Assembly: GCA_001724265.1 (NCBI GenBank)
Contig: MEDY01000090.1
Location: 1 to 64,000 of the forward strand
Direction of reading: 5' to 3'
DNA length: 64,000 nucleotides
Source of the DNA: Rhizaria sp. SCN 62-66
Lineage: Eukaryota
The notes below the pieces were generated by a model, which searched no databases, was not told where the DNA came from, and saw only the letters and a program-made list of their open reading frames with translations. The position numbers were made by a program, and so were the translations under genes. Positions 1,380 through 60,000 of the stretch are shown here, piece by piece. Each line of letters opens with the position of its first letter. Position 1 is the stretch's first letter.

Positions 1380-4373
1380 TTACGTAACTTGTAAAGCCTT
1401 GTCGATTTGCTCCATGAACTCCTGGTCGCTCAGATTAGGCTTCCCCCAGTACATCTTAGCTGTCTCCAGCACATAATCAACCCCAAACAGTACCTGAAGC
1501 GGCTCAATCATAAACTCCAGCAGCCACTCCTTCTGGAATGCGTTGAGTTTAGCCGCCGCGCCGTCCGCAGGCAGCCAGTCTGAGAGTATGTGCACCAGAC
1601 TGCCCAGAAGCACACCGATCTCTTTCTGCACGTTTGAATGAGCCGCCGGTGCCAGTGCAGCTAGCGCGCGCAGTAGTCCCGCTCGCACAGCGAGCCCCGT
1701 AGTCTCCCATCCGGGTGCCATGCAGCTGTGCGCGTCCATGGACAGCACTATCCTAGTGAAGTACACCGCCCACGCGACCGTATCGGCGGTGTTGTCATTG
1801 GCCGCCTGCATGAGCGAAAAAACCGAGCCCAGGTGCGACTGCGACAGATCCACACGCGCCTGCTCACGATTTGTCGGGATCGGGAACCTCCGGATCTCGC
1901 GCGTTGCGAAGCTGCCGCGCCATTGCGCACCCGTGCGATTTTTCTCCGGCAATGTGCCACAGACGACGCTGACGAGCATCGGCGTTTCCGCAGCACCGCG
2001 CATAATATCCATCACGTCGATAGCAACGCGGTGACCGGCGTTCCATACCGCGGGTGAAAGTAGCTGCATCAGCGCGTTGCCAGCGCCGCGGCGCATCGCG
2101 GCGTACATCTCATTGAACGGCCGGCTGGAGTCGCCAGAATCTTGCTAAAGTAGATTCGACACCAAAAGCTCCCAACTGAAGAATGTCGCTTTTCGGAAAA
2201 ATAGATGTGGGATATAGGGCACCAGCGGAAGCACGGCGAACGCGCTGGCTGTCAAGACTTCGGCGAGGAGCCACACAATAGGCATCCGCGGCATATCAGC
2301 TTCCGCTGTGAGCTCGGGCTTGGGGTCCAGCGGGTTCTTGTCCTGTTTGTACGCCCGCACAGCCGCAACAAACGCGCGCATGTTCTTCTCCTCCGTTTGC
2401 GCCACTGCAGCGACGCGCGCGGCAACCGCAGGCAGAACAGACTCGTCGCGCACAGCCACGATCGCGCGGTCCGCGGCTGCCTGCCATGCTGCTGCGGCCG
2501 TGGGGTGTCGCTGCCACACTGCGGCGTTGAAAATATCTTCGGACCGCAGCGAGTTACCTCGCAGCGGCTCGTCACAAGGCAGTGAGACGCCCAGGTCAAT
2601 CGCGGCGTTCGACAATAGGACGCAGATGTGTTTGCTCATACGGGCCGCGGCCACGAGTCGGAGCAGGTCCGCGCTGGGCGCGGCAAACGGGTCGTTGCGC
2701 TTCTTCTTACCAACCACATCGGCAGCGTCAACGCTAGTGTTGGCTCCAGTGCAAATGCTAACGTCTATATTCTGGTCGTCTTTACCGGCGGTGGCGGCGG
2801 CGGCAGCGGTGGCGAATGTGGCGGCCTGCAGTGCCGGATCCCCCATCGTAACAGTGAAAACAAGCGAGGGCAGGGGACCCGCGGCCAGCGCATGGGCGCC
2901 AACACGGGCCACTGCGTAGTGTCGTGTCACAAGCTCAGCCTCCACCAAATGCGTAACGTGGAACGACTTTCCGTTGTTAAACGTCGTCACTTTCACCGCA
3001 AGCAGAGCTAACGCGCTGAGCATGTTCGTATAAATGTTGTCTTGACAGGACAACGTGCGTAGAGCACGTTCAAATAGTCGCAGCACCTGAATCTCAACGC
3101 ATCCGTCAAATGAGGTTGGCAGCAGCTCGACTGAGTCGTCGCATGGACGCACTGAAGTTGCAGCTGCACTGGTAGTTGCAGTGGCCTGCGTCTCGTTGTT
3201 GCAGTCTTTGTTCACATTAGCATCAAACTTGGTTTCGTTGCTTCCCTTTTGACATGTACCTTTGATCTCCTCGCCACCATTATCATTGCCATCGTTATCG
3301 CCGTCAATTGTGCCCTCACTGTCGTTGCTCCCGTCGTCATCCTCGCTGGGAAGCTCGATCAGCACAGGACTGTTGACTGTCCAGGCCACATGACCCGCAC
3401 GTGGACTGTATGCAAAGGAAAACTTCACGGTGCGTGCGAGCGACTCGACCAGTAACGGATTCGTCAGCGGTGCCGCTAACAGCGCGGGCAGCAAAACAGG
3501 CGTCAGTGCGAGCGCGAGTCGGGCGCGATACCGGCGCGGGGCCGCCGCTTGCAACCCGCACAGCGCAATGGCCGCCAGCGCCGCGTCGCTGCGCACAGGT
3601 GAGTAGAGCAGTGGTACCAGCGCGGCGCGCGTGGCGGCCACAGCGGTGGGCGTGTCGTAGAAATGCGCGACGCGACGGCGCAGAAAGCGAAGCACGTGCT
3701 TGACGAGAGCCAGATGCGTGATTTTCTCGGCATTAGTGCGGACGGCGGCTGCTGTCGCACTGGTAAGCTCCTCGTCTTCGTTTGTAGCGTTGACACGGCG
3801 TGATAAATCTTCACGGTCACCGAGGCGCTCTTTGTGCGCGTCTTCACCATAATCGTCACCACCTTCATCACCTTCGTCGCCTTCATCGCCTTCGTCGCAT
3901 TCATCGCATTCGTCGCCCTCGTCGCCCACGTCAGTGTTACCGTCTTGATCTGCATCAGTAGCCTCTTTTGAATCTTCATTCTTCCTGCGAAGCTTTGCCA
4001 GCCGGCCTACGATATCATTAGAGCTGTAGATGCGGAGATGGGTCAATAGGTCTGCGAAGGCAGCGAGCCGCACCAACGCGGTACGCCGCGTCAACGCGTT
4101 GTTCAGTTCAAAGATTGGCATGGCGTGGAAGGAGATGTCAAGTGCTGATAGTAGATGTGCTGCGGAGAGAGGATAGTCCTTACGGTCGTCGTACAGCCGA
4201 TAGTCGAGAAGGCGAATGCCTCGAGCGAGCTTCGAGATTAAGGTGCGGGCCAAGGGTGGTAGCTCCTGTCCAATCAGGAATTTGACATCCCGAACAGCGG
4301 CACGCGAAATAGTCACGTCGTTAACCGCACTAGTCATGGCAATGCTCGTGTTCACCGTCGTTACAAGTCCCAA
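1380..4373 (-). CDS. Hypothetical protein (~1000 aa, helical with acidic inserts), one gene through the in-frame TAG at 2145-2147
   Basis: ORFs 2145..4373 and 1380..2108 are in the same frame, separated only by TAG plus 12 sense codons, and the frame ends in TAA. It also continues upstream through another TAG at 4392-4394, so the true 5' end is uncertain. No recognisable domain. Confidence 0.65.
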
Positions 4374-4813
4374 GTGTGTTTCTGCAAGGCTCTATGACTT
4401 TGCAAAAGTTGTCGAGGAAATGTCAAGCCGAAGCAAATGTAGCTCACTCACTAAGGTTTTTTGTTGTAGAAAAAACTGATCATCATGGAAAGACAAAAAA
4501 GACAACAAACGATATAGTACTAAATAAATGCATCTAGAACATTTCATATGAAATTCACGATGATAATATCGTGAGCATTCAGGTTTAAAGTGTCGGAAAG
4601 GTCGAAAAGTGCAAAATGGCGTTTGTGGTGAGAGTGAGTTCTCTTGAAAGACACAGCGTATTTCTTCATTTCTTCACTTATACTATCATCTTTAAGATGT
4701 CCGCTTAACATAAATAGTTGCAAATATCCCACGTGATGCATACTCTTATACTATTTTACCGCATGAACATGTACTTACACCGTAAACCACTATCTTCTCT
4801 CACAACCATACTT

Positions 4814-5971: not shown

Positions 5972-8900
5972 TTAGCCCATAAGCGCTTCCCACGAACTCT
6001 ATTCCTCCGTCATTTCCTTTTTCTTTCCTCCCGCAGCAGCAGAGCTTGCCGAGCTATTACTACTTGTCACAGGAGTCTTCTCAGCAGCCACAACAACCCG
6101 ACCACCAGCGCTAGTGTTGTTGTAGCTATTGTAGTTGTCACTCTTGAGCTTTAACGGCGCAATACCTCCCTTGGCGCCGCCCGTCGTCGTGCTGCTCACA
6201 CCCACAGAAACGGAGCTCAACAGCGCCGTATTGCGGTGCGGCTGCATGAGAATGTTGAGCCCGTCGCCGCCATACCACGCCGTTTCACCGCTCTTGCGCG
6301 CGAGGTTGTACACGGCATCCGCCACACGCGCCACCACGGGGTTCCCCGAGGCGTCGACGAGCAGCAGCGTGAGCGCAGAGCACTCCCAGCAGACGAGTGC
6401 GCCCGTGACGCGGCAGTGGTGTTTGCGGGTGAAGAAGCCAAACTCGACGTCGCAGTGCATGCACTTGGTGCCAGCCTCGTCGCTCACCCACTTGTCACCG
6501 CCACGGGAAACCTTGGCCTTGAGAGCAGCTTCCTCAGCCGCCGTCATCCGCTTCCGAATGGGAGACTGCGCACTCGCACCAGAGCCAGAGCCAGAGTTTG
6601 AGTTGTCACTTGCACTTGCGTTGTTAGTCGAAGGAGTTGAAGAAAGACTCTGGTCGTGGTCCAAGTATGTGCCGACCATGCCCTTAAGCGGAGCCGAGTT
6701 CTTTTTGTACCAATCGCACACGTTGCCAAGCGCGGTCCTCTCATCCGTCGCGCCCCCAGCTTCGAGCCCAAACACGACGCCGGCAACCGAGGCCGTGCCC
6801 ACTTCCACGGGCCGCACATCCGCCTTGCTGCGCATTCCGGCAACGCGCGCGCCGCGGAGACAGAGAAACTTCTTGACATCATACAGCCGTTGGCGTCCGT
6901 CGCGCGAGAGCGTCGGCAGCGTCTTGCGTGCCGCAAACGTCAAGTGGTGCATCGCAGCGTTGCCGTCGTTGTCGCGCAAGTTCGGCCGCGCGCCCTTGTC
7001 CAGCAGCAGCCGGATCACGGCGCCGTTGTCCCCGCGCGCGTACTGCAGCACCCGCGGCGTGCCGTCGTCATTAAAGGCGCCGTCGGGCTCAGCGCCGGGC
7101 GGCAGGCCAGCGGGGCCGTCTGCGGGAGGAACGTGGTTCATGCACGCAAGCATCAGCGGCGTGCGGCTTAACTTGTCGCGCGCGTTGACGTCAGCGCGCA
7201 GCATCAGCAGCAGTTTCGCGAGCTCAAAGTCGTTTTCCGCGGCGGCGACGTGGAGCAGCGTGCGGCCAGTCTCATCTTCGTCGACGCAGTCCACAGGGCA
7301 GCCGCTGCCGACGAGCGCGCTCAATACCGCGGGACGGCGCGCTGCGAGCGCGATGCAGAGCAACGACCGGCGCTGGGCGTCGCGCTGGGTCGGAGACGCG
7401 CCGTGTGCGAGCAACAGCAGCACTGTGCGGAGGTTGCCGCGGTGCACTGCGGCCTGCAGCGGGGTCAGCGGGTACGCGCCGAGGCCAGCGGCGGCGAGGA
7501 GAGTCGGGGATGAGATGGGCTGGTCGATCTTGAGGTCGGCGATGATGCGCGCACGTTCTTCGTCGCTCAACACGGGCGACTCTTCAGAGCCGTCGTCGTC
7601 TTCGTCATCGTCGTGGTCTAAGGTGTCAGTGCTGGCGTTGTCTTGAGAGCAGACGCCTTCAAGACGCAGGCGTTCGCGGGCTGCAGCAGCGGCTGCCTTG
7701 CCGCGGCCCGGGTCAGCGCCACGTAAGATACCCTCTGCACGCACGTACTCGTCATCGCACACAGCCTAAAGAAAAAAATGCAGCGAAATGTCAGCCAAAT
7801 AGAAACAAAAAATTAAAAGCAAGTAAATTAATGATAATTCGGAAAATATTTTCATAAAATAGAGAGAAATCAACTCAAGATGTTTGCAAATGTGTCAATC
7901 TGTACGTACTTGGAAGAGGCGCGAGCTGAGTAGCTTGGCGGCTGCGGCACCGCGCGTGGCACGGCGCGACACAAGCGCTGCCTGCGACCGCTCCACAAGG
8001 ATCGTCACTGGGCCCTTGATCTTGCTCTTATTCACACCCGTAGAATCAGTAGAATGCGCCTGCGAATCGGCGTTTTGCTCCGCGTCAGGCACTGGCTCGG
8101 CGACAAGAGCCCAGGCGCGGTCGCCGACGTCCGTCAGCGCGTTGTGCAGCTGTGTGAACTTGACCATTGCGCTCTCAGCCGGCACTTGCACCGTGTGCGC
8201 AAGCGCTTCGGCCACGGCGGCGGCGCGCGTCGCGTGGATAGTCGCGGCAACACGGGCGGCGACGAGCGCGCGCGAGAGCAGCGGCAAGCAGCGGCGGCGT
8301 AGCGTCTCTGCGAGCGTCGCCTCGACCTTGTCCGTCGCCACGCGCGCCGCGGCCACAAACGCGTCGCGCAACTCGCTAGCGTCGCCGGCGAAAGACTGCG
8401 CGTCGTTGCCGTTGTTGCTATTGTAGAGTGAGAGCGCGGTGGCAATAAACACGGTTTCCAGTGGCGCAAACGCGTCGACCGCCGCTTCCGCAGCCTCAGT
8501 CTCGGCGCGCAGCTCAGCGAGCCCGCGGCGCAGACGCAGCAGAGCGGCGGCGGCGGCGCGGCGGTGCGGGTGCGCACGGTGCAGCGCGCGCAGCTGCGCC
8601 TCGAGGGCAAGCACGGGCCGGTCAAGCAGCGCCAGCAGACCGAGAGTTGGCACGGTGAAGGCGGGCACGTCGAGCTCTTCGGGGGCTCGCATCTCGTACC
8701 CACCCGCGCTCTCATCGCCGTTGCCGTGAGTGACAAGACTGCCAGCGTCTGTGTCGTCTTTGCTCGCGGCGCTCGCAGAGTCGGTGTCGAGGTCGATCGT
8801 GTCGCGCAGTCCGTCGGCCTCGGCGGTCATGGCGGCTTCGCGCGAGCGCGCCTCGGCTAAACCGCGCAGCAGCGGCGCCGCAACACCGCCCTGTGTGGCG

Positions 8901-10758
8901 CCGACAAAGGCACCGGAGCTCACACCGGTCCGCGCAATCGCAACGACACCAGCGACAAACTTCTTGCTCTTTTTGCTCTGCTTAGTAGTATTATGCTCTT
9001 GCTCATGATCTTGCTCTTGCGCTTCAGCTGCTTGTTGCTGCTCAAAGTGGTGTTGCAGCGCAGCCAACGCCGCTTGCCTCTCCTGCTCTGTGGGAACGTA
9101 CGAGTGCTCCACCGTCCACTCCACACCGTACTGCCGCTGCTTGGCCGCGTCTTCGGCCAGCTCAGCCTCGAGCGCGCGCACCGCGACGGCGATGGCCGCC
9201 GCCACGCGCGCGCGCCCGGCGTCGGCGTACGCAAGCAGAGAGCGCAGCACAAGCGCGCAGCCGCCCGGACGCCACGCAGATGGGTTATCAAGCGGGTTCG
9301 CGCCCAAGGCGGCGCGGCGGGCTTCGAGGTGGGCCAGACGCAGGCGCAGCGGCGCGGTGGCAGCGGCCATGGCGTCGGCTTCACTCTGCTGCTACTGCTG
9401 CTGTTGCTGCTGTGCGCTGTCGCTCGCAGTGTTGTTGTTGTCGTTGTTAGACTGCAGAGAGAGAGTGAGCGAGCGCGTGCGTGCTTCTTTGCGGAGACGG
9501 AGAGCTTCTTCTTCCGCTTCAGCGACAGAGGCGCGGACGCGGGCGATTTTGCTCTCGAGATCTTCCACAGCAGCACCAAGCGCAGCGCGCTGGATGGCGT
9601 CGAGAGTCACAGACAGCTCCGGGTGAAGCAGCTGAGACTGCGGCACTGAGGACAGATAGGGCCACGACTTGCTCACGGTCGCTCTGTTGCTCACAGTCAC
9701 TTGTTGCGAGTGAGGCTGCTGCGACTGAGGGACGAGAGAAGCAAGGATCGGGGTCAGAGCGGAGGCGAAAAAAGCAGCCTTCTCCGCGGCAGAGGCCTGC
9801 TGTTTCTGCTGGAGCTTCGAAAGCAAGTCCGCAACGGCAGATGCAGCGGCAGCGGCGGCCTCGCGCGCAGCAGCGCCTTCTTCACTGGCGCTCGCGTCGT
9901 TGCCGTGGGGGATATTCGTATTGATGGCGGCAGCGGCGGCGAGAGTGCTGTTGCGGAGCAACACACGCACACGACGTGATAGCGCAGCTGCTTGCACGCG
10001 CCAGGACTCGGCAGCGCGGTCGTCGCTGTCGCTGCTGTCGCTTGCAGCAGAGAGCGTTTCGGTGAAGAGTGCAGCCAAGAGGGAGTTGTTTTTCGTGGTT
10101 GAGACGCAGCTGTTCGCAGCAGCCGAGGACCGATACGGCACAACACAGCCAGAGGCACTCTTCCCCCCACTCGCGGCGTTCGCAGTGTTTTGCGCAGCGT
10201 CGCCCCACACAAAGACGCGTGTGACTGGGAACGGTAGCCCCGTGCCGTACACCACACCGACAGGCACTGGAGCGCTCGCAAAGCTAGAGTTCGCAGGAGT
10301 GCAAGAGGCAGCGCGGACAAGAGGGCGTGCCATGACCACAGAAACGCGCTCACTCACTCTTGCACCGCCGTTCGTCGCGGCAGCACTCGAGTTCATAGCG
10401 GGAGCATCGCCCCAGAGCCCTCCGGACTTGACGGACCTCGCAGCAGTGCCACTGCTCGCGCCCGCGGTCGCAGGCTTCAGCAGAGTCAGCGCGGGCACGC
10501 TAGAGCCAGAGGCACTTAGACCCGCGATGTAAGTACCCGTGGGGAAGAGCGCGGCGGCGGCAGCCCTGCGCGCACGGCGGCGGAGGCGTTGTTGCATTGC
10601 GTGCCTCTCTACCACAGGATCACAGAGATACACCGCAGTACGCAGTTGCTGCAACGCAGCAGCGCGTGCCACAGCGTCTTCAATGCTTTCGTCGCCGTCA
10701 ACAGTAACAACACTGCGGCTATGTGCACTCGTGTCGTTGGTCACGGCAGCGGCCACTG

Positions 10759-10790
<32 letters not shown>

Positions 10791-13700
10791 CGCAAAGTCT
10801 TCTTGTCGCGGCGCTGCGGGTGCTTCAAGGTAAGTCGCACGAGGGGCGCTGCGTGGTACACGTGACCAGCGGTGTCGATGGGGAAACGCGCGCCACCCAT
10901 GCACAAAGCACTCAGGGCGGAGCTCACGCCAGCGATGTTAGCGCTATTACTGCTGTTGCCGGAACTAGTGGCGAGAGAACTCGTGCTTGAGATCGGTGTG
11001 CTCGAGCTACTGGCGCCGCTGCTGTTGTTGCTATTGTTGTTAAAAGCAAAGAACTTGGAGTCTGAAATCGCGTCAAACGACTGCGCGGCGACAACAGACA
11101 TCGGCACCGACAGCAACACAAATTGCTGCTGCTGCTGCTGTTGCGGCGCAGTCGCTGCTAAGGCAGTCTTAGCGTTCGCGGCGCTCGTGCTTGTTGTGTT
11201 GGTGTTCGAAAGCGCAAGTCCGGTGTTGCCCGTGGCGACGAGACGCCACTCCAGCGGCGGCGCCGCGATCGCCACAGAGCCGAACCCGTCGCCGTCGCTC
11301 GCGCCAGAGCCGGCGTGGTGCGAGTGCGCCTGAGAGGCCGCGATCGTGAGCGACGTCGAGAGCGCGGTGTTCGCGGCAGAGGAGGACGCCGATGCCACGG
11401 CGGCAGGGCCGCGGCTAGTGACGTACGCGGCGCGCGCGGCGTCAACCCAGGTGTTGAGACACGGCACAGCGGCAGCGGCGGCGGCAAACGGGTCCACCGA
11501 CGTGCACTGCATCACAGCACTGGCGCTCGGAATGGCGCCGTTATTGTTGTTATTGTTGTTGTTGTTGTTGTTAGCGAGCAGAGAGGCAGCCGAGGGCGCA
11601 GGCGTAAAGATGAAGCTGCCCAGCGGAGGCAGCGACGACGCAGGACACAATGAGAGCGTGAGTAACCGCCGCGCGAGACTGTGAGCACGCGCTGCAAACT
11701 TAGACACAACCATAACATCACTTTCATTAAAGCAAGGAGAAGTCACCGTAGCCGAGTTGCCGTCAATAGAGCTGTGACTCTCAACGCTAGCGTCAATACC
11801 AGGGTTCGTGGTTTGCATGTATGCAGCGAGGCCGTACGCGTGCACAAACGTCTGCGCACACGCCAGCACGGGCGCTTGTTGTCCGCGCACACTGCGGCTC
11901 GCACTGTAGCTGCTGCTGCTGACGACGGCCGCCGTGGCATCTTCCTCCTCGCCCGCCAGATCGTTATCGTCGTCATCGTTCGCGAGGGACGCAGCGCCCG
12001 CGGCGGCGGGCGGCGCATTACGCCGCTGCGCCTTGCGCGCGCGCACACGCGCCTTGAGCTTGCGCGACGCCGCGCGGCGCGCCGCCTCGGCAACGGTCGG
12101 CCGCAGCTGGTATGCATCGCCGTAGCCCAGCGTCGCGGCGAGGCGCGCGGCGTCGAGGCCGCGGGGCGGGGCGGCGGCAAAAGCCAAGGGCAGCAGCAGC
12201 AGCCGCAGCTTGTTCGCCAAGCGGGCGGATGATGACGCGTGGGCTGGCAGGGCGACGCCGGAGTTCACGACGGCGTTGGGCTTAGTACCGATAGAGCTGT
12301 TGTTGGTCGCGTCGTTAATAGAGCCGCAGTCGTCGGGAGCGCTCGCGTTGGTGTTTGAGTGGCAGGTGAGGTCGGACAGGGTTGAGGCTGAGCTGAAGTA
12401 GTGGTCCGTGTCGTCGTCATCATCGTCGTAGTCTCCACGGAGCAGCGCTGCAATATCCTCAGCAAACACGCCACTCTGCGACGACGCAGAAGCGGTGTCT
12501 AAGGGGGTACTTACACTCGTCTGGCTTTGGAAGTTGTGTTCGTAGGTCTCTGCAGCGTCGATGGGACGGTTCAGGGAGCCCTCGAACCACACCAAGTCAC
12601 CCTTACACTCCTCGCTCGGGTACTTAGACTCCTTCTTATCGCTATTGCGATCGCTATTGCGAGCAGTAGTGACCGTGAGCCGGCCGGCAACAGGCACGGC
12701 ATGCTCAATCACACCGTCAAACCGCACCCTAAGACGGCGCTTCGCCGCCGCCTCGCGCTTCGTGCGCCTGTGACCACTGCCACAGCGCAGCCAGAGCGTA
12801 CCAGTGCCCGTCAACGACCCGCCGGGACCAAGCGAGCCGCGGTAGCGGCTCACGGGCTGCGGCGGCAGCGGGCAGCTGACTGGCAGCAGCTGCAGCAGCG
12901 CCGGGAGAGCTGAGGCTAAGCTGGGCGTGCTGGCAAGAGCTTGTGCCAGCGGCTCTGAAGCCACCGCAGACAGCAACGCCGCAACACCACTCGCGCTCGC
13001 GTTGCCCGCCGAACTCGCGTGTTCCGCGTTTTGTTGTTGTTGCTCCTGCTGTAAGAGAGCGAGGGCAGCGGTGGCGAGCGCACGTGCTTTGCTGAAGGAA
13101 GCGAAGCTCAGCGTGCCGTGACTCGGCGCGCCTTCAGCAAACTCACCGCTGAACGCGCGTGCGCACGGCAGCATCACAGGCCCCAACAAAGCACCCTGCT
13201 GTTGCTGGGTACTTACACTGCTGCCGGAGTCTAAGGGGGTCGTGCTTAGTGGCGCGGAGTTGAGCTCAGCAGCGTGGGTGACGAGCGCGTGCGCGACAGC
13301 GGCTGCAGCGACTTCACCGGCTCTCGGCAGCGCGTAAAGCACACGGCCAGCGCCGTGCACCGCGCCGTGCCGCCAGTGGCCACTGTAGGCGCGGGCAGGG
13401 GCGCGCGCGAACGGCTGGCTCAGAGGCGGCGGCGGCTGTTGCTGTGCGAAGCGGCTCGCAGTCGCCGTGGTGGCTGCGCTCGCGGCTGGCTTACCCGTCG
13501 TGTTCGCGGCTGCTGCTGCGGCGTTCTTTGCCGCTGCAGCTGCGAGAGAGTGGTGAGTGTTGGAGTTGTAGTCGGCAGCGATCGCACGCGCACGCTTGAT
13601 AACACGCGCAACGGAGGCAGACGTTAAGCCGCCAGAAGCAGACGTGTTCTTCTTGCTCTTCGCAGCCCCATTGCTATTGACACCAGCAAGACTGAGAATA

Positions 13701-16700
13701 GTGTTGAAATCGCACTTGCTCTTCACATGACGCTTAGCGAAGCAGCCATTCTCAACATTATCATCCTCCTCCACCGACGCCTTTTCTTCATCTTCACACT
13801 CGTCATCATCATCGTCGTCATCATCATCACCACTGTCACTATTGTTGTCATCATCATCGCTGTTCGCGTTCTCACTGTTGTTTTGACTGTGATTCGCGTT
13901 CTCTTCAGCGCCAGCGCCGCGGCCAGTGCGCCAGGCCATCGCGCCCCACCCATGTGGCTCAAGTGCAGAGTCCAGCCCCCCCTTGTACACGCCGCGCGCG
14001 AGCTGGCCCAGAGCGTCCGGCGGCGGCGCAGACAGCCGCCACAGCCTCGGCAGCCGCAGCGCGATGCCTTGCTGCTGCTCAGAGCCGTCACTCTCACCGC
14101 CACCGCCGCTAGTGCTCGTGGTTAAGAGGGGAGCGAAGGGGAGCTTGGGCAGCGCGCGCTGCAGTGCGGGCAGCGCGGTTGTGACGATGCGCAAAAGGTA
14201 CGCCGCGGGCGACGGCAAAGGCTGCAGAGACCGGTCGGAGGACCAGTTGCCGCCCGCAGCCGCGAGTGCACTGGGTGAGCCCGCCACGGGCTCGGTTTGA
14301 TTGCCGCTGTGTGTGTCGGCGAGGATTCGGCAGGCGGCGTCGTCGGCAATGGCCAAGTCCCAGGCCTTGGTCAAAACACGGACTAGCAGAGCCAGTTCGT
14401 CCTCGTAAACACCGCGGGGCGGCACTGCAGCAGCATTACTGACAGCGTTGTTAGCACTGCAGAGCGAGCTGCTCTGCGAGCCCGCGAGCACTGCGCTGTG
14501 AGAGCCTGTGTTGGTGTTGGTGAGTGTCGCAGCGTCGTACTGAGAGAGCAGGTCAAGAATATAGTGCGCTGAGGCTGAGGGGGAAGACAGCGCTAAGGGG
14601 CGGCCGTCTTCTAAGGGTGCGCTCGTACTTAGAGCTGAGGCAACGGACTCAGGAGTCATGAGCGACTTGTTGTTGTTGTCAGAAGCGCCACTGACGCTGT
14701 CAGAGGGGGCGGTACTTAAACGGAACGAGTGCATTGAAGCGAGTAAGCGTGCAACACATGCAGCGGCAGACACGGGCATCGACGACGACTCTAACGCCAG
14801 GAACGCGTCTAAGGGGGTAGTTAACCTGTTCGAGTCGTCGTCAACCTCCTTTGTAGACTCGGCTGAGTCAGCAGTCGCAGTTGAGGAGAGTGATTCGTGC
14901 TGAGCTTGCTTTGTTAAAGCGCAAAGGAACGCAGTCGCGAACGCAGTCGCCGTTGCAAAGTCGCCATCAGTCTCAGTCTCAGTTTCGGTCTCACTGGCAG
15001 GCGCATTGTCCGTGCTCGTAATATCATCGAGAGGTGTTGCGAGCGAAACTGCAGTGAACGCATCCCACTTCAGCTGACTATGAGCGTCACTACACTTAGA
15101 CGGGTGACTGTGAGCAGCAGAGTGACTGTGAGCACTGGGAACAGAGACGGCAGTCGCGATAGACTGCATCAGTGCGTCAACGACCTCCAGCGCTACGGGA
15201 AGACCACTTTGACCAACGCCGCCAGTCGAGGTACTTATATCGCTCGGGATGGCAACAGCAGTGCTCCTGACATTGACACTGTCGCCAACGCTCTTCGCAT
15301 TGTTGCTGTTGCTGTTACTGCTCGCCGTGTTGTTCGAGCCAACGCCGAACCACACGACACCCTGCTTCACCGCGCCCTTGCTCCAGCTCGACTGCACAGC
15401 GCAGCGACGGCGGCCTAAGAGCGCCACGCAGCCACCGTGGCGGCGGCCGCGGGCGTCGAACTGCGAGAGAACGATTTCGCGCGACGGCAGTGACGATGCA
15501 GCGGCGGCAATCGCGGCCTTGGCGGCAGCGATGCGCAACGCCCAGTTCTTCACAGCACCGGTCGCGCTCTTGTTGCTGTCGCCTTGCTCAGTATTAGTGC
15601 TGCTCGTGTTGAGCGAAGCGGCGGAGGACGTGGAGACTGAGCCGCGCAGTGCGCAACCAAGCGCGGGGAGGTTCCGAAAAAAGAGTCCCGTGAACGTGAC
15701 ACTGGAGCCCACACCACTTGCACTCGCGTTCGAGTTAGAGCCAGATCCGCTGGAGGAGTTCGCGCTGTGGGAGCTGACAGTAGCAGAGTTGTTGGTGTTG
15801 TGGACGCTGCGTCCCCAGCCGTGACGAGTCGGCGGCACCACAGTCGTTGTTGCGAAGAAGAAACGCGCAAGCTCCTCACTCGCCGCCGCCGCCGCAGCAG
15901 CAGCAGCAGCAGAGGCTAAGGGGGTGTTGGATGGACTTACACCGCTCTCATGTGGTTTCTGAGCAGCATTGGTGGTTTTCTGAGAGGTATGTGTGCTGAG
16001 GTTTGTAAGGGGCATGGGGGTGGCAGGCGCGGGTAAGGGGGTCGAGTCTAACAAGCAGCCAGTGTAAACGCCGGAGCCAACGCGTAACCAACGCAGTCCA
16101 TCACTGTCATCATCGACATCCTCTTCCGCGCCTTGCTGCTGCTGCTCAACAGCAGTCCCCGCGGCACTCGTGAGAGGGAAATTGCCGCTACTCGTGGTGA
16201 GCGCAGTGGCGATCGCGCCGGCGGCCAGCGTCCCGCGAGTGACTGCTCCTGAGGCGACGCCGACGACCGTGGCGACCTGCGCTGTGACGCGGCCGCTGAC
16301 GGTGGAGTGGAACGTCACGGTGCCGGCGCCGTAGCGCAGCAGAAGCACGGGGGCGCCCGTCAGAGTCTGCCAGGGCGCGATGCGCGGCGGGAGACACTTA
16401 GACACGTCTAAGTGGGCCTTGGAGTGAGACGAGGAGGAGGATGTAAGGGCGTGCGCCGACTGGGGGGGCGACTGGTGGCTGTAGAGCACGGAGTCGAGCG
16501 TTGCAGTGAGCGGCACGGCAAGCACTGGACCAGACCAGGAGCACGAGCGGCCTAGAGACGGCTGCAGCGACTTTAGCACACCGTGAGCATTCGCATCAGC
16601 AGCAGAAACAGAAGCAGCGGCAGAAGGGTACTTAGACTTATTGCTCTGAGAAGACTTGTTCTTGCTGCTGCCTGGGTACTTAGACGGGGTGTAAGGGAGG

Positions 16701-30214: not shown

Positions 30215-30254
<40 letters not shown>

Positions 30255-41824: not shown

Positions 41825-42497
41825 GAGTACTGCGTGTTACGGAAGCGCAAAAGAGGCTTGAAGAGAAAGTGGGAAGGGCCTTGGTGTTGCAGGGGAGGCT
41901 TCGTTCGAAAGCGCACGCGGGAAAAGCGGGCAAAAGCTGCGCGTGACAGAAGACAAGATATAAAAATCGGTTGGACTAAGCCGTATCGTATTCTGAAAGT
42001 GCACTGAACAGGAAAATTAAGGACACGTTCGTCGTCATTTACGCATTTTAAGCCGGCACCACATCGCTCAAAGGCGGACCTGGCGGCTTAACTTTGATTC
42101 TGACCACAAACACTTTTTTGTAGCCAGCTGGCTGGCACAGTCGGTCGGTTTGTCTCGGTCGGCTGTTGCCAAGTGCTCTAGACAGACCGGCGAGATGCTT
42201 TTTCATGTAAATGTGACTCTGTGGATCATTTATTTTGTTTATAACTTTTCTTATAGAGCTAAATCGTAACCTTATTGCTATTGATACTATTCGTATGCGC
42301 ACTGACGGAACCCCCTTTGTGCTCTATCCTCTTTTTGCCCTCCCTTGACTTGGTCCCTGCAGCTCGATCCCCGCGGCGCAACACGCGCACCCGCACGCCT
42401 TTCCCTTTGCTCTGCTCCACTTTCACCCCTACTCCCACCTTTGCACTTGCGTAATCCGCCTGTCTGTGCGCCGTCGCCGCGTTTTGTGTTGATTACC

Positions 42498-43111
42498 ATG
42501 CTTCGCGGCGCGACGGCGACTACAACAGCGGTCGTGGGCCGCATTGCTGCCTCAACTCTCCCTGCCACAGCCGCAGCATCAGCCTCCGCCTCCACTTTGA
42601 CGTCAGGGTACTGCTGGCAGCCGCCGCAGCACTCGCGTCAGCCGGCTGAGGCGCTGTCTTATGGCCCCGCCCGCCCCCAGTCGACTTCCCTAACTACTAC
42701 AGCAACAGCGTCCGCTTCTGCAACTGCGGCTGCTCACATCTCAAACTCTGGCTCTCGCTCTAGCTCGAGTTCGAGCTTGAGGTTGGACTCTGACGCTCGC
42801 TCTGACTTTTCTGGTGCTGCTGCTGGTGCTGCTGGTGGTGATGCTCTTGGGGCGTTGCCGTTTGTCGGTGGGAGCGCGATTGGCTGCGGCGCGTTTTCGG
42901 GTTCTAGTGCTCTGTATTTCTCCAAGAGCCACAGCAAGAGCAGCAACGACAACAACAACAACAGCAGCGGCTCGAAAGCTAATGCCAAGCCGAAAGGCGA
43001 TGCCAAGCCGCATACTACTCTGACAGACACTACTCTTACTTGGCGGGATTTCCGGCAGCGGCAGATTGAGAAGCGGCAGCGGCAGCAGCAGGAATAGCAG
43101 TAGCATCAGCA

Positions 43112-43146
<35 letters not shown>

Positions 43147-43262
43147 CGCAGCAGCGTTCTAATTACAGCGCCAACGACAAGCCGCGCGCCGACAACAATC
43201 CAAACAACGCCAACATTCCTGCGCGCTCTCAGCAAAACAGCGCCAGCAACAACCTGAACAGC

Positions 43263-43294
<32 letters not shown>

Positions 43295-46200
43295 CGGAAG
43301 CAAGGTCTCGAGAGCAGCTGTTGCCAGAACTCATGGGACACATGACACGACTGTTGCTGCTTCAGCTGCGATCGTTAGTGCTGTTGGCCGTGTTGAAGTC
43401 GCTAGCAGTCTCGATATCGATGCGACTGACCTGCTTGCAACCTCTCGCCACCGCGCGAATCCCAGTCATACGATTGGCACCGAGAGCCAGATGATCGATG
43501 GCCAGCACTCCGACTCCGACACGGACTGCAACCTCCCCATTAGCACGGGACTGGGCAGTGCGGCTTACAGCAACAGCGGCGACGATATGACTGTGGGTAA
43601 CGCCGTCGCCCGGGTCGCTGTAGACGTCGACGGCGAGGAGTCGGGCGACGATGACGGCGATTTCCTGTCTAACAGCGCTAGAAGTGCGGCTAATAATGCT
43701 GACAGCGACGCTGGGATGAGCGACAGCAATGCTGACTTTGTTGTCGATAACGACATTGTTGTCGATGATGCTGGTGTACTGCTGTCTCACAGTCACGCGT
43801 CACCCCCCGCGAGTACTGGCACGAGACCTGGCACGAGTACCGACGTTGGCGTTGACGCTGACACTGACGCGGACGCTGATCTCGCCGACAGCGACGGTCC
43901 GGACGCCGACACAGACGGCAACGACGATATGCTGATGCTTTCTGACACTGATGACGTCAGCAACTTCGTGCTCCCGCCCCCCGATCACAACGGTATCACT
44001 GGTACGAGCGCTATCAGCGCAAGCAGCGCGGGCGATATGAGTGTCGCTCGCAACCGTGGCAGTGAGAGTGACGGTAATGCCACGAGTGTGAGCAGCGATG
44101 AGGATGACTCAGGTGTTCTACTGAGCAGCATCATCAACAACAGCAACAACAGCAGCAACAGCAACAATAACGCTCCTACTACCAACAACACCACCAACAA
44201 CAATAACAACACTCGTGCTCGGGCTAGTGCGCAAGCTAACGCGCGCGCTGGCGCTGGCACTGGCGGTGGCGGTGCTAACGCTAACGCTAAAGCCAAAGCT
44301 AACACTGGCAAAGCGAATGCCACCGCACGCGCGGGCGCTGGCGTTGGCAATGCAGCGAAGAGCAACAGCACGAACGCTAGCAAAGCTAAGGATGTGAAGA
44401 ACACTTCTTCTGCTCCTGCTGATGCGGGCGCCATCAACGCTGACGTCAATCCCATTCCTAGCTACCCTCAGTCCAGTAACATGCGTTCTAACTACAAGAA
44501 CAGCTCCTCTGGGAGTTTTGTTCGGTCATCACCATCGTCACAGTCGCTGCCTCCGTCATTAGCCGCCCTGGCACAAGCGACCACGCCGTCGCTGTTGACA
44601 CTGTTTAGTTTTGCGTATAATCACGACTCTGGCGCTGCGCCTATGGGAAGTTATAACCCTGCGCTCACACTCTCCCAGGTACGCGGACTTCTATCTTGAC
44701 AAAACACGACATTTAACTGTAAATATTCATTTTTTAACAATATTTCTTTGATATGACATATATTTAACAGCGCAGCATTTTTTCCATCGCTTTAATGCTA
44801 TGAGACTTTATTTCGATGATAATTCACATCAACACTACTTTCCCTCGCTTGACTTGTTTTCTTTGCGGCTACAGGCACAAGTGGCCGCCGCCGCCGCGGC
44901 CGCTGCCGGTTCACAGTCCCCCTATGTCACTGACCCTATGACAACTCCACGGCCTTTCCACCCGGCCCCGGTGCTGTTCACAGTGCCCTCCGCCGCCACC
45001 GCATCAGCCGCCGCCGCCGCCGCCGCCGCAGCCGCTAGCTCTGGCTCTCGTTCTGGCTCGGTGACGGCAGCGACTGCGGTTGATTTCGACGGTGATGTGC
45101 CCCGCGTTGTCCCTCTCGCGACGAAAGAGGGAAGCTCACGTGGCAACTCGCTCGAGATGTGTTTTTTAGGAACTTCCTCGTCCTCCCCCAGTGAGCGCCG
45201 TAACGTCTCCTCTGTCGCGCTCAAGGTTGATTCTGCGGGCACGACGTGGCTGTTTGACTGCGGTGACGGTACACTGCAGCGGCTGCTGATGGCACCGAAT
45301 ATCGGAGTGCAGGACATCACCAAGATCTTCATTTCGCACCACCACTCGGACCACGTGCTCGGTCTCCCACAGGTACGCGCTTTATCCCTCAACAAAACGA
45401 GAGTATTTGCACTTTTCATAATGTCAACGTTGTTAATTTGCATTTGCAACACAATTTCATACCTGGTATAACGACGATATACTCACAAATCCATTTTTTC
45501 CATCCTTTTGTTTCTCGTTGCCTGACTGACTGGCTGACTGACAGGTGATTGTGGCCTGGCAGGCCGTGCTTGGCATTCGCTACAACGTCCCCAAGAGCTA
45601 CCTCACAGCCCCGCCCGTGCACGACCGCCACGCCTCGGACTATACCGGCAGCCTGAGCGGCGCAACGACCGAGGAAACGGTCTCAGCAGCGCTGCAACCG
45701 CGTGGTGCCGACTCGGCGACTGCGCCGGCGAGCGAGCGCCTGCTGAGGATCTACGGCCCGCTCGGCGTCGGCGCGTTCGTGTGGGAGGCGTGTCGTTTCT
45801 CGCGTCCGCGCACGATCGCCGGCGTCGAGTTCCACGAGTTCGTCCCCGCGGGCACGCCGCTCTCGGCGCTGCCGCCGTCTGCGCTGTATAACAACAATCT
45901 GCCTCCGTCGCAGTGTCCGCCAATGCCGCTGCGGTCGAACCCGCTGTACCACGCGTGCCAGACGCATTACAGCATTCGGTACTATTTCGCGGATGAGACA
46001 ACGGATCTATCGCAATGTGTTGTTGAGGCCTCTGTTAATGGGCCACGGGTTGTCGTCCCAGGTACGTCTGAGTCACGTGTTCTCTCTCTATGTTATAACG
46101 CGGCGGCTTAACCTTGTTTACTTTCGTAGTGAAAGTTATCTTTAGTTGTTGCTTTAAGAATGCTTATTGCGGCTTTTTTGAGGATAATGTGCATTGATTT

Positions 46201-54552: not shown

Positions 54553-57030
54553 ATGTCAAAGCGCGAGCTCACTCCCCAGGAGGTTGCGAAACTACAACAT
54601 GCAAAAGCCAGCTCTGGTTCGAAGAAGGGGATTGTGACAAAAGCTAACAAAAGACTTGCCGAGGCCAAGAGGGCTGCTGATAATGCTGCTGCTACCGCCA
54701 AGGCCATCGCTGATGACCCTACGGCTACAGCTGAGGCTAAAGCTGCCGCTGATGCTGCTGTTGAATCTGCAGCCGAAGATGTTAAAGGAGCGACTAGTGC
54801 TGTTGCCAATGCTGAGGCGGCTGCAGCCGCTGCCTATCAGCTTTATAAGGATCTCGAGGCTGCTCTGAGTCTCAAGGAGCAGCAGCCGCAGCCAGTGATA
54901 CAGCCACAGTCGCTTTCGCATCCCCAGTCTGACACTGGGGCTGAGGCTCGCGCTCCGACTCAGTCTCAGGCTCAGACCCAGGCTGCGACTTCGCCTGCGT
55001 CAGCGGCAGCGACTGCGGTATCGACTTCCAGCGCAGGTCACGACTCTCAGAGCAACAGCGAAACCACTGGCACTGGCGCCAACACTGACGCTAACACTGA
55101 GGCGATCGCTCATGCTACCGCTATTTCTGACGCGAGTGCTGACGCTAAGGCTGACGCTTATGCCGACGTGAGCGCTCATGTTGACTCTGCCAGTAGGACT
55201 GCTCCCGCAAGCGATGCTGCTGCTGCTGCTGCTGCTGCTGCAACTGATTCTAGCTCTGCTGGTGGTGGTGGTGGTGGTATTGTTGCTTCTGGCACCGACG
55301 CCGATTTGAGCAGCACTGCGATCTATGCCAACGACGACGATTACAATGATATGAACGACGGCTATGATGTCTACGGTTACCATAATTATCACGAGGAGAC
55401 TCTCGAGAGAGTTGATTTCGTCAACAACATTTATAGCAGCCGGAGTACACACAGTGACACGCGCGGTGATGACACGTTCCTAACCACGGATGCGAGTTCT
55501 GTTGTTGCGGACTTGCCTGGGAGTGTTTGTGTTAACGCCGCCACTGCAGCTGTTGAGAAGACTGATTCTGCGTCCGCTACTGAGCCTGGGGCCGCGACTG
55601 ATTCGGAGACTGCGGCTGCGGAGTCGGCTGCTGCGGGTGCGGCTGCTGCGGCTGCAGAGGACGTGCAGGAAACCATTGACAACAGCGACAACTTCATCAG
55701 TGTTAGAAACACCCCTGCCACGACCAAGAAGAAGAGCCTTGATATGATGACTGATGATGAATCGATATTCGCTGCGATGATGATAACCCCGTTGGCTGAT
55801 GCGCAAAACGCAGCAGCTGATGCGCAGACCACCACTGCAGACACGGGCGCAGCCACTGCTGGCACAGCAGCCGCTGCTGGCCCAGCAGCCGCTGCTGTCC
55901 CGGCCGGCGCAGCACAGATTGCCATGACAGATAACGACGACGACACCGCTGCTGCTGATACTACGGTGGCGCCCGATGCTGTATCGGTGGCCGACGATGA
56001 TGGCAGTCGCGTTGTGAAGCCCAATGCTCGGCAAACTTGCGCCCGGGCTCCTCGGAACGCTGCCAAAGCACCCGCAGCTCTCGCAGCACCCACTGTACCC
56101 GCCCAGCATTCCGTTAACGACAACAATCGCGATAGCTTTGACGGGGACCCGGACGCGAACGCTGAGGTCGATAACGCAAGCAACGTGAACGTCGCGAGCG
56201 CGAGCGCCAGGGGCCGCCGCGGCCGTGGCGGCGCGGGCGCGACCAGGGGTGGCAGGGCACCTAAGGCGGCTACTGCCAAAGCTGCTGCTGCCGAGGCTGC
56301 TGCTGCCGAGGCTGCTGCTGCTGTTGCTGCCGAGACTGTTGCTGGCGCTGCGACCGGTGACGTCACGATCACTGACGTTGCGGTTGTTGATGCCACTGCT
56401 GTTGACAGTGATATCAAGCGTGCCAAGAGCAAGGCTCGCGTGTCACTTTCTCCTTCCGACGTGACCGACAGCGTTTTTGCGAGCATACCAGCTAACACCG
56501 CCCTCAGTCCGAGCGCTGTGAGCATTCCCTGTCCGAGCCGTCGGGGCGCGAACGCCCGCGTCCGCCCCACTGCCGCCGCCACTGCTACCGCTGTCGCAGC
56601 TCCTGCTGCGCCTGCTGCGAGTTCTCCGTCTGGCAGCAGTGCTGGCAGTGCTGCTGCTCCTGCCGCTGCTGCTCCTGCCGCTGCTGCTGGTGTTGCGCTC
56701 AGTGTTTCGCGAGACGGAGTCTTGACTGCTGACGAGTACACGCGGCTTACCAAAGAGGGGCGGCTTAGCTTCGACGCGGCCGTGGCGCTCATGCTCTTGC
56801 CGGCGTTGAACGACCTCAGTACTCTCGGCAGCAACATCGTCTTCACCAATGTTATCACTGGCGCTGTGCACATTGCCAACAGCAACAGCAACAGCCGTCG
56901 TGGCGCTAAGGCAAGCGGGAAAGCACCAGTTTTAGCGACGGCTAAATCCCAAGCTCAGGCTCAGGCAGCGGCTGCGGCAAGCAAGATCAACAAGGGTGCG
57001 AATCGAAACAGACTTAGCAGCAATGCCAAC

Positions 57031-57061
<31 letters not shown>

Positions 57062-60000
57062 AACTGAGTGGATTCAAAGCGAGCGCGAGCTTTTCTGTGG
57101 CTGGTGGTGCCGAGGCAGCAGTTAAGACTGTGCTTTTGCCTGCTTTGAAGCTAAGCCGCCGCCCGTTGACCCTCGCGGCCAGCTTCGACCACGCCGCCCT
57201 GCGCGCGCGCATTGAGCGGGAACGCGCGGCCGCCGGTGCCGCGTATTTGGCCGCTGTGCTCGACGAAGAAGAGGAGGAGTTTGGCTTTGACGCCAAGTCG
57301 AGGCAAAGCCGTGAGGCGGCGCATAAAGCTGCGTTGAAGCAGGCTTCTTAGCTGCTGCACTCCCGCTGCATCGCCAACGACGCGCACGGCAGTAACAGCA
57401 CTAACGACACCAACAACAACAACAATAGCAACGATCGCAAGTCAGCTGTGACTGGGGCAGCTTTCGGGCCGCATTGCTGCAGTGTGACGACTGTCAGAGA
57501 CCGCGCGAACCCTGTTCGTGGCTTGCGGCCTCCGAAATGGATTCGCCGCGGCCTAACTTACCGCAACCGCCGGCTCACGGTCTTCGCTGGCGTGCGCAGG
57601 CGTGCCCTCCAGTTCTTGCGCGACGCAGCTAAACTTAAAGACCCCGTGTACTTTATTTCCGCAGTGATCAGCTGCGAGGAGCAGCTGCTGCGCTCTGTCA
57701 TTGCACTGAGCCCGTATCCTCTCACTGTGACTGTGGGCGCAGCGCCGTCTGTCGGGCTAAGTGCCGGCAAGGACAGTCTAAGTACCCCTGCTGCCGACTC
57801 TACCTTCGGCGGTCTAAGTAGGTTCACGCGCGGGTACTTACAGCTGTTTAGCGATACGACCCTTACGGCGATGTACGATGCCGCGCGCACCGCGCTCGCC
57901 GCCTCTCAAGCGCGCGCTTCTTTGAGTCCAAGCAGCTCCAGTGCTTCTGCTGCTGATGCTGCTGCTGTTGCTGCTGCTAATGCTGGTGATGCGTTTGTGG
58001 GTCTCAACGGCGCTATTGCGGCCGCGCTTGAGTTGGCAGAGGTCCAAAGCGGCAAAGCGCTTGACGACTACGCTGCTGACAAGCTTTACGGCTGCGGCCG
58101 CAGTCGCCCCGAAAGTTTGTTGCAGAACGCTCACAGTCGCTTTCGCAGCGCTCACAGCCATTGCGACGCGTTTGAGCGGAGCAAGAATACGAAAGCAGCG
58201 CAGCACCCTGTGTTTGCGCACATCTACAGTCAGAACACTGCTGGTGGCATGACTGATGATAATGACGACGTCGCTGTCTTTCGCGACGTCGCCGCTCACG
58301 GTCACTTTGTGTCTGCTCACGGTCACTCTGCACACCATAGTCACGCGGTGTTCAGTGACGGAGAGGCGTCGTTTAGCTGGGATTACGACGCAGCTGCTGA
58401 GGACTCGGAATCCAACTCAAGCACTGACTCCGAGTCGGCGTCAGCGTCAGCCTCCGCCTCAGCCTCAACCTCTGGCTCTAGCTCTGGCTCTGGCAGTAAC
58501 TCTGGGTCAGAGGGCACTGACTCCGGCTCTGGCTCTGGCTCTGGTTCCGGTCCTAACTACCAGTCTGATTCGGCTTCCGACTTTGACTTTGACTCGCATA
58601 CCAGCAGTAGCCGGAGCACGAAGCGTGCGCGCTTAGGCGGTGCGGCTGCTGTCAGTCGCGTGAAGAGCTGCAGCGAGGCCCGTCAGAGCCGGGCGAGCAT
58701 TCCCTACAACATCGGCGACGACGATGACGCTAACGCGGACTACGAAGACAGCAACGACGGCGACGACTCCGACGACTCCGATGATGTCGACGCTGGCGAT
58801 CGCGACGTGCCTTCGAAGCGCAGCCGGATCGCGAGCGCCAGCGCCCGTGGGAAAGGCAAGAAAGCTGCGCGCAGTGCTGGTAAGGGCCGCGGCAGTGGTG
58901 GGCCGCGCGGGATGAAGTTGCCTGGCAACGGCATTGGCGGCGGACCCCGACGCCAACCGGCACAAAAGCGTGCTACCGCCGCCACCACTGCCACCGCAGC
59001 TGCTGCTGCCGCTGCCTCTGCCTCAGCCGAGTCTGACACGGACACAGCGGACGGCGCTGCTGCTGCTGCTGCTCATGTTGCGATGACTGAGACGCCTCGG
59101 GGAGAAGGCACTGACGATGAAAAGGAAATCATTCCCGAAGCTAAACGCCCTCGCGTGCCTTTGCCGTCGTTTGTACCTGCTGCGAGCGCGTCGAACCGTG
59201 CCATTTCTCTTCCTAATCATCACAGCAACTAGAACACGGCTGCTATCACTCCCACCGTGCGTACCGATGACGGTAGCACACGCGTGAACACAGACTCAGA
59301 TGTCCGCAGTATGACTGACAGTGCCACCGCTAGTATCAACGACGCAGAACACGTTCCTACAACTGCTGGTCTCGCCTTTGCTCTTCCCGCCGCGGCCGTC
59401 GCCACCAATGGCCCTGGAACCGCCGCTCCCACTGACTCTGTTGCTGGCGCTGCCGATGCTGGAACTCGCACTGCTCTTGGCGCTGGTGCTGATGCTGACG
59501 TCGACGCGGAGGCAGCGGGCGACGCGTTTGCCAGAGGTCGCCGCAACCGCGCCCGGGCGAGCGCCTCGGCAAGTGCAAGCGCCTCTGCGAGTTTGAACGC
59601 CTCGGCGAATGCTCGAGCTACGGCCAATGGGCCTCAGAGCCAGCAGCCGGTTAAGAAGCTCACGCGGGCGCAGCAGCGACAAAAGGAGCTCGAGGAGAAA
59701 CAACAACAACAGCAACAACAGCAGCAGTTGCTACAACAGCAGAAGCAGGCGCAAGAGCAAGAGCAGCTTGACATTACCAGTGCCGCAGCTTTGCAGGCGA
59801 CGGCCGCCGCCGGCACTGCTGCTACTTCCGCTGCACATGCTGCCAACGCCCCACTTGACGCCGCGACTGTGCCCACGACTGCAGCTGGGGTTTCGGACGC
59901 CGCGCCTGGGTTTGCGACTGCTGCGGCAGCGAATGTTGATGACGACTTTGAGATTGTTAATGTGAGTGCGCCGTCGCCGAAGGCTCAGACTCCTGTCACT

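Follow-up and report, generated by a model that had tools for sequence, protein, structure and literature searches.

We have analysed positions 1 to 64,000 of contig MEDY01000090.1 (assembly GCA_001724265.1, Rhizaria sp. SCN 62-66), a stretch of 64,000 nucleotides that we call the window, and find that TAG is very probably a sense codon in the organism from which it comes. The whole statement, that TAG is translated and that TAA and TGA serve as stops, is likely as well. This had been the core claim of a sequence-only reading of the window. It is supported here by the continuity of frame and coding signal across TAG, by homology at TAG 2145 of a gene that we call g1380 and in the PIGA gene, by related metagenome lineages, and by matching contigs from other studies.

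Reading frames and coding signal across TAG

All 11 TAG triplets listed by the sequence-only reading were confirmed in position and strand (Table 1). That the same frame continues at each of them, as it had claimed, was found at eight firm sites (2145, 9392, 20828, 29621, 43095, 43101, 57349 and 59230) and, by homology, at 29210, but not at 4392, which lies in a leader, nor at 5999, which is ambiguous. The listed sites fall in six genes rather than five: eight or nine in-frame TAGs lie inside the intact coding sequence of five genes, and the sixth, the Ank-FYVE gene, has the ambiguous TAG 5999 only.

Under the standard code, the window contains 21 stop-to-stop segments of at least 300 codons, of which six end at TAG, 14 end at TAA or TGA, and one leaves the window before any stop. 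Four of the TAG-ended segments stay open in the same frame for 254, 498, 626 and 1589 further codons; the remaining two are the segment that ends at 5999, with 8 further codons, and an antisense frame at 55480-56442. Past the TAA or TGA of the 14 other segments, the frame stays open for merely 1-63 codons. Reading TAG as sense extends an open reading frame (ORF) of 3811 codons to 4501, and fuses ORFs of 933, 626 and 1588 codons into one of 3149. No comparable fusion of coding ORFs results when TAA or TGA is read as sense. A code in which UAA and UAG (UAR) both encode glutamine was rejected for the window, because reading TAA as sense lengthens any large ORF by at most 62 codons and the coding signal is lost past the TAA that ends each of seven genes.

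Coding potential was scored as codon-usage log-odds over 240 nucleotides on each side of a triplet, with training on five long segments that have no internal TAG. At all eight firm sites the score is best in the frame of the TAG itself on both flanks, and it collapses past nine gene ends at TAA or TGA. The window has ten TAGs in 13,511 codons, spread over six of its about 14 genes. This usage of 0.74 sense TAGs per 1000 codons bears out the low usage noted in the sequence-only reading.

If the standard code applied, the TAGs would have to be nonsense mutations in decaying genes or variants in the population, which we consider barely credible. The sequence-only reading had argued that random decay should give TAA and TGA as well. 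This argument is weaker than was claimed, because with the codon usage of this genome 56-59% of new nonsense codons would be TAG; eight TAGs in eight (p~0.01) are not an extreme outcome. For 13 TAGs in 13, the decay model gives p~0.0005-0.001. Decay also fits poorly with the long frames that stay open past TAG, and with ten TAGs that are accompanied by no frameshift, TAA or TGA. Variation in the population is a poor account as well, as the assemblies of other studies show identical letters at five of the six listed sites that they cover. Contigs of the sets X3 and X4 have zero differing letters across 4392, 5999, 7766, 9392 and 20828; among them, X3 record 5 (8784-11535) covers 9392, X3 record 8 (20253-21352) covers 20828, and X3 record 3 and X4 record 10 have the same letters as the window at 5999.

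Gene g1380 and TAG 2145

The 985-residue product of g1380, with TAG read as glutamine, was searched with HMMER against 1.84 billion representatives, and nine matches were obtained. P0125 (731 residues, 40% identity) aligns with residues 400-950, and P0125, P0127 and P0128 each cover the position of TAG 2145 within a single protein. Residue 731 is likewise spanned by single in-frame tblastn matches in four metagenome loci (L001, L002, L003 and L004). In the alignment TAG 2145 fills exactly one column, gap-free (LL(TAG)QDSG against FVKQDSG, the codon being AAA in L001), which argues that it is translated and not spliced out. In this column, Lys, Ala, Asn, Arg or Val is found in the homologues. 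P0123, the closest relative at 65% identity, occurs on contigs of up to 108 kb and stops four codons before TAG 2145; judged from the protein, this end would fit an in-frame stop codon there too.

Two further observations on g1380 are hard to reconcile with a decaying gene. The 254-codon C-terminal part that follows TAG 2145 is conserved across the family. Moreover, strain variants between window positions 2478 and 3737, as seen in other runs, are listed at 23 sites, of which 15 are synonymous and 8 non-synonymous; third codon positions hold 14 of the 23, and the variants co-occur.

The gene is bracketed by the arms of an inverted repeat of about 360 nucleotides per arm (493-855 and 4862-5221), made of five collinear pairs that are 81-100% complementary. 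Both arms hold an identical tRNA-Trp(CCA) gene (602-674 on the plus strand and 5030-5102 on the minus strand), whose anticodon stem in the predicted fold has only four Watson-Crick pairs, with an A.C mismatch closing the loop. A 4-bp anticodon stem of tRNA-Trp(CCA) has been linked to read-through of UGA in some trypanosomatids and ciliates, as described in a passage of PMC13092985. Beside this four-pair stem, no in-frame TGA was seen in the genes of the window.

PIGA and the low-complexity genes

PIGA has two TAGs in its first exon. The ATG at 29189, upstream of TAG 29210, is the only ATG before the conserved N-terminus (ICIVSDFF...GGVE), so that this N-terminus can be reached only through TAG 29210. 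The N-terminal lead thus obtained has 24 residues, compared with 29 in the homologue P0003. The coding score at this site is ambiguous, and we regard it as probably sense. The second TAG, at 29621, is flanked in one frame by conserved blocks at 29261-29380 (95% identity to P0003) and 29648-29728 (81%). Upstream of it the coding score is 47.8 in the frame of the TAG, but -45.9 and -23.1 in the other two frames, and no in-frame GT..AG intron around it fits a reading of the local sequence. A further TAG at 29795 was considered and set aside as an intron acceptor or intronic triplet, not coding.

The other firm TAGs outside g1380 lie in g42345 and in two giant genes (Table 1). The 5' end of the giant MORN-repeat gene probably includes an intron. 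A homologue search around TAG 57349, in the second giant gene, gave one match only, P0254, which is a fragment from the organism itself.

The two giant proteins (7895-21352 with about 4485 residues, and 54553-63999 with at least 3149) consist largely of low-complexity sequence rich in Ala, Ser, Asn and Gln. Long in-frame low-complexity inserts also occur in conserved proteins of the window such as PIGA, and are missing from their relatives. PIGA on the plus strand forms a divergent pair with the ITPase gene on the minus strand (27942-32041). Their nearest relatives are P0003 (67%) and P0137 (74%), and the longest contig is of 5384 nucleotides for each, so that the pair is probably syntenic in the related organism.

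Related metagenome lineages

Relatives were obtained as seven loci, L001-L007, from one metagenome scan for homologues of g1380; they are 32-38% identical to the g1380 protein of the window. The homologous gene has two in-frame TAGs in 940 codons in L002, with the same two in L006, one in 880 codons in L003, and four in L004, two of which are also in L005. In L001 and L007 the gene is free of in-frame TAG. None of these relatives showed an in-frame TAA or TGA in the homologous gene, and in L001-L004 it ends three times at TAA and once at TGA.

One TAG column is common to L002, L006, L004 and L005. Since 31 of the 241 aligned codons are different between L002 and L004, this TAG appears to have been kept through divergence. 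It is found in contigs from two metagenomes, and its retention is again at odds with nonsense mutations in decaying genes. As relatives at such low identity also have in-frame TAGs, the description of the reassignment as young in the sequence-only reading is not supported; on sequence comparison the trait is probably not young. For an 874-codon gene next to the homologue in L004, neither the window nor the other loci hold a counterpart.

Introns and changes at the RNA level

Introns of the window do end in TAG, and the in-frame TAGs 7766 and 52904 were rejected as sense codons since both are intron acceptor sites. X6 record 26, from a run that is labelled cDNA and is probably DNA, ends at 7764 with 42 letters unmatched. 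These introns lend some support to a standard code in which the TAGs are removed from the mRNA as small in-frame introns, or changed in it by U-to-C editing, an alternative that we rate as extremely unlikely.

The firm sites do not have the look of the AT-rich GTAAGT...TAG introns and they score as coding; introns around them were rejected by composition, coding score and frame arithmetic. At 2145, moreover, the TAG pairs with one residue of the homologues. Four differences are listed for X5, a poly(A) RNA run, and none of them is at a TAG site. We know of no U-to-C editing of nuclear mRNAs on such a scale.

Gene ends and the context of TAG

The ends of genes in the window are TAA in seven cases, TGA in four and TAG in none, with 5999 counted as sense and in a small sample. 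The sequence-only reading had described the ends as mostly TAA, with a few TGA, none of them requiring TAG, and this agrees with the counts; ten of the 11 ends are certainly not TAG. In Ham1 and PIGA, the last residue that aligns to P0137 and P0003, respectively, is no more than 28-36 codons away from the TAA. TAG 4392 had been taken as probably in-frame and coding. This was not borne out: the upstream side is non-coding and the ATG at 4337 comes after the triplet, which places it in the 5' leader of g1380.

The letter that follows TAG could matter. Among 16 sense TAGs from the window and L002-L004, ten are followed by C, compared with 22% of codons that begin with C (p=0.0006); after TAA and TGA terminators, C occurs in 4 of 15 cases. 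In eukaryotes, termination is weakest where C stands at position +4. The letter after TAG 5999 is A, the sequence downstream of this TAG looks non-coding by the coding score, and TAA comes 8 codons on. The C bias and the TAG-A at 5999 leave room for a reassignment that is incomplete and depends on context.

It is conceivable, therefore, that TAG is a dual or leaky codon: a stop still recognised by the release factor eRF1, read through efficiently in weak contexts, maybe by near-cognate tRNAs, and ending some genes. The very low usage of TAG would agree with this. We nevertheless find it very unlikely. Four genes have two TAGs (the two giants, g42345 and PIGA) and could make much full-length product only if nearly all ribosomes read through; the gene ends that are certainly not TAG speak against it as well. 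The C bias, too, is partly a by-product of the CAG, CTC and CTG codons that come next, and its sites are partly non-independent, as the site at 339 of L002 is that at 371 of L004, and 43095 and 43101 lie in one tract. A related proposal is that UAG is dual across the uncultured clade, being sense before a weak context, maybe through a near-cognate Gln tRNA, and a stop in a strong context such as that of 5999. This is quite unlikely in our view. If it were true, a UAG of dual meaning would be the first context-dependent code to affect UAG alone.

The amino acid encoded by TAG

With TAG taken as an ordinary sense codon, its neighbourhood resembles that of glutamine codons. At least three Gln among the eight neighbours are found at 3 of 10 TAGs (0.30), compared with 0.249 for Gln codons and at most 0.041 for every other amino acid. 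The context log-likelihoods are -6.17 for Gln, -9.77 for His, -10.56 for Glu and -11.73 for Leu. CAG-to-TAG is a transition, and where L004 and L005 have TAG, CAG is conserved in 4 of 6 sequences. The sequence-only reading had proposed that TAG is probably Gln. The match of context to Gln codons stands, but the residue is not established, since the codons opposite TAG are mixed: in close relatives the six columns have CAG, CAA, GAG, GAG, TCG and TTG. On context, transition path and precedent together, we lean slightly towards glutamine.

Several points count against this assignment. GAG in two columns, TCG and TTG, like Lys, Ala, Asn, Arg and Val at 2145, resemble the random spectrum of codons one step from TAG; CAG and CAA opposite TAG belong to the same spectrum, which would also be expected from nonsense mutations under the standard code. 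Whatever TAG encodes, C-to-T changes within runs of CAG would place it in a poly-Gln context. Lastly, 43095 and 43101 are non-independent, and when they are counted once the likelihood ratio of Gln over Glu is only about 10.

That TAG is sense but encodes glutamate, or another residue that is not glutamine, is an unlikely alternative for which there are nonetheless some indications. GAG is found opposite TAG not only in the two columns of close relatives, but in a third in the distant L003, and several TAGs lie in acidic contexts (TDD(TAG)DSE, TEDED(TAG)VDAE, R(TAG)LEEEE, TEE(TAG)SSW and E(TAG)Q). TCG and TTG, too, are found opposite TAG. Among precedents we counted Oligohymenophorea sp. PL0344, which reportedly reads UAG as glutamate. 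Another is Blastocrithidia, for which UAR = Glu is given in PMC12153298, in the part of that source that deals with this code. In the neighbourhood statistic, the log-likelihood of Gln exceeds that of Glu by 4.4, or by about 2.4 with the twin sites counted once. We regard glutamate itself, the main rival of glutamine, as unlikely, and the amino acids other than Gln and Glu, all taken together, as doubtful. Leucine is the worst fit to the polar TAG columns. A UAG = Leu code, such as that of the rhizarian exLh or that of some phyllopharyngean ciliates, was not found here, in view of these columns, of TTG opposite TAG in only 1 of 6, and of the log-likelihoods of Leu and Gln, all of which rest on few data.

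Gene content of the window

The window has a GC content of 48-65% and about 14 genes, which are eukaryotic. Besides PIGA, which is split by AT-rich introns, and the two giant low-complexity genes, one with MORN repeats, there are genes for an ITPase (Ham1), a SprT-like protease, a bZIP protein, an Ank-FYVE protein and an OGFr_N protein, a metallo-beta-lactamase-fold gene, and an ankyrin gene with a GTAAGT...TAG intron. Several studies have runs from bioreactors, wastewater and activated sludge that contain sequence near-identical to the window, which is therefore a metagenome contig of an uncultured microbial eukaryote. The named best matches of PIGA and ITPase are distributed among stramenopiles, alveolates, green algae or plants, fungi and animals, and homologue searches with these two proteins found no close named relative. 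No rRNA was found in the window.

In the region of the bZIP gene (38830-41561, minus strand), two long ORFs, 39534-41561 with the bZIP domain and 38830-40746, overlap in different frames and are both scored as coding. The overlap suggests that an intron has been missed in the bZIP gene, or that it has a frameshift or was wrongly assembled.

Table 1. Positions of TAG triplets in the window, and of the genes in which they lie. "Sense" denotes the reading adopted here.
Feature	Position	Strand	Remarks
Gene g1380	1380..4337	-	985 codons; no Pfam family; TAA end; one internal TAG
TAG, sense	2145..2147	-	codon 731 of g1380; coding score in frame on both flanks
TAG, non-coding	4392..4394	-	5' leader of g1380; upstream score -19.2, out of frame
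TAG, ambiguous	5999..6001	-	8 codons before the TAA of the Ank-FYVE gene; next letter A
TAG, 3' splice acceptor	7766..7768	-	intron of the Ank-FYVE gene; T-rich tract before the site, TTTTTTTCTTTAG, then GCT after it
Giant MORN-repeat low-complexity gene	7895..21100	-	open for 4485-4501 codons with TAG as sense; TGA end
TAG, sense	9392..9394	-	within a CAG/CAA run, QQQQQQ(TAG)QQ
TAG, sense	20828..20830	-	Ser/Asn-rich linker between MORN-like repeats
PIGA exon 1	29189..29728	+	Pfam PIGA and GT4 matches; alignment and tblastn with P0003
TAG, probably sense	29210..29212	+	codon 8 of PIGA; homology support
TAG, sense	29621..29623	+	in an 89-codon low-complexity insert of PIGA exon 1
PIGA exon 2	about 29922-30945	+	
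PIGA exon 3	about 31154-32038	+	TAA end
Gene g42345	42345..44699	+	low-complexity; no Pfam family; TGA end
Two TAGs, sense (43095, 43101)	43095..43103	+	head of a poly-Gln run, QQQE(TAG)Q(TAG)HQQQ...
Second giant low-complexity gene	54553..63999	+	open for 3149 codons to the window end with TAG as sense
TAG, sense	57349..57351	+	in-frame coding scores 20.9 and 22.9 on the two flanks
TAG, sense	59230..59232	+	in-frame coding scores 28.8 and 38.7 on the two flanks

Discussion

Here, we have described a nuclear code in which TAG is very probably translated. The evidence is of several kinds, and some of what we found tells against a sense reading of TAG. The firm TAGs are all in low-complexity or weakly conserved stretches, with none at a conserved residue, and the count of zero in-frame TAA and TGA within ORFs is true by construction. 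TAG 5999 may be a sense codon or a genuine terminator. The contig of X3 record 1 has 11 differing letters over the region of 2145, and as only four of them are listed, the identity of the letters at 2145 is not proven. L004 has a one-base deletion relative to L002 (at about 1036-1060, GTC CCG AGC in L002 and GTC CG AGC in L004) that shifts the frame, so that this copy may be decaying or misassembled, as a standard code with decaying genes would have it. None of the firm TAG sites is covered by the listed RNA contigs (X5 and X6), which leaves some room for editing or removal at the RNA level. Finally, no tRNA with the anticodon CUA was found in the window, where the tRNA genes are the two tRNA-Trp(CCA), or in loci L001-L007, which have no tRNA genes.

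How UAG could be read apart from UAA is suggested by Iotanema spirale, a member of Fornicata (Metamonada) in which UAG encodes Gln and UAA and UGA are stops, as set out in passages of Panek et al. (2017, PMC5304391). There it is argued that reading UAG but not UAA needs the anticodon CUA, one change away from tRNA-Gln(CUG), and that eRF1 must also lose its contact with the G of UAG. By analogy, UAG in the organism of the window would be decoded by a tRNA with the anticodon CUA, which does not pair with UAA, and the N-domain of its eRF1 would no longer hold the G of UAG but would continue to recognise UAA and UGA. An eRF1 gene was found neither in the window nor in loci L001-L007. In the UAR = Gln codes, the passage from stop to Gln is likewise described as a one-letter change in the anticodon of a Gln tRNA (PMC5304391, in part).

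The likeness to Iotanema spirale is close. In both, UAG alone is sense, UAA is the commonest stop and UGA the second, and in-frame UAGs are occasional; UAG does not end genes in Iotanema spirale, and apparently not in the window either, TAG 5999 aside. The two cases differ in how the residue could be fixed: in Iotanema spirale, 28 hyperconserved UAG positions, 22 of them Gln, and 730 transcripts served to fix it, according to the portion of PMC5304391 on this point, whereas the TAGs of the window are at non-conserved positions. The same source, again in part, reports a change in the GTS motif of the Iotanema spirale eRF1. The organism of the window is known from metagenome contigs, and nothing marks it as a fornicate.

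Phyllopharyngean ciliates in which UAG is Gln and UAA is the preferred stop are described in passages of a 2024 study (PMC11687900). As in the present case, the reassignment of UAG only was recognised by mining metagenomes and genomes, and UAA is preferred; suppressor tRNA genes are reported there from two genomes. The window itself is unlike a ciliate macronuclear genome, judged against the usual features of such genomes, in being a contig of at least 64 kb with a GC content in the range given above and about 14 genes, some of them giant. In the rhizarian exLh (Sainouroidea), UAG encodes Leu, as mentioned in PMC5304391 in the portion concerned. That organism resembles ours in being an uncultured protist in which UAG is decoupled from UAA; it differs in the residue, as discussed above.

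We note that the proposed reading of the window is reproduced by NCBI translation table 15 (TAG as Gln, with TAA and TGA as stops). The original attribution of this table to Blepharisma was an error, as stated in a passage of PMC5304391, and its use by phages is a separate phenomenon of bacterial hosts. The UAR = Gln codes, which occur in many ciliates, in hexamitin diplomonads and elsewhere, have TAA as a second sense codon and TGA as the sole stop; the code of the window is not of this type, because here TAA terminates. Compared with context-dependent codes such as those of Condylostoma, the karyorelicts and, for UAA, Blastocrithidia, only TAG 5999 might be a terminator here. Full-text searches of the literature, supplements aside, gave no account of this organism, nor of a code in wastewater eukaryotes that reassigns UAG only.

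Nuclear codes that split UAG from UAA are few in the papers considered here, being those of Iotanema, a sainouroid rhizarian, some phyllopharyngean ciliates and one oligohymenophorean ciliate. Their interest lies in the fact that the two codons are normally read together by eRF1. The code described here is apparently a further case of this rare, known kind, outside the ciliates. Its value lies in a possibly independent origin, and in recurrent long contigs from which binning could recover the eRF1 variant and the tRNA(CUA). In practice, too, the code has consequences, as gene callers that use the standard code split these genes, and the proteins in databases are fragments (P0124 and P0254). 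The relatives, some with in-frame TAGs and some with none in the homologous gene, offer a natural series for dating the change of code.

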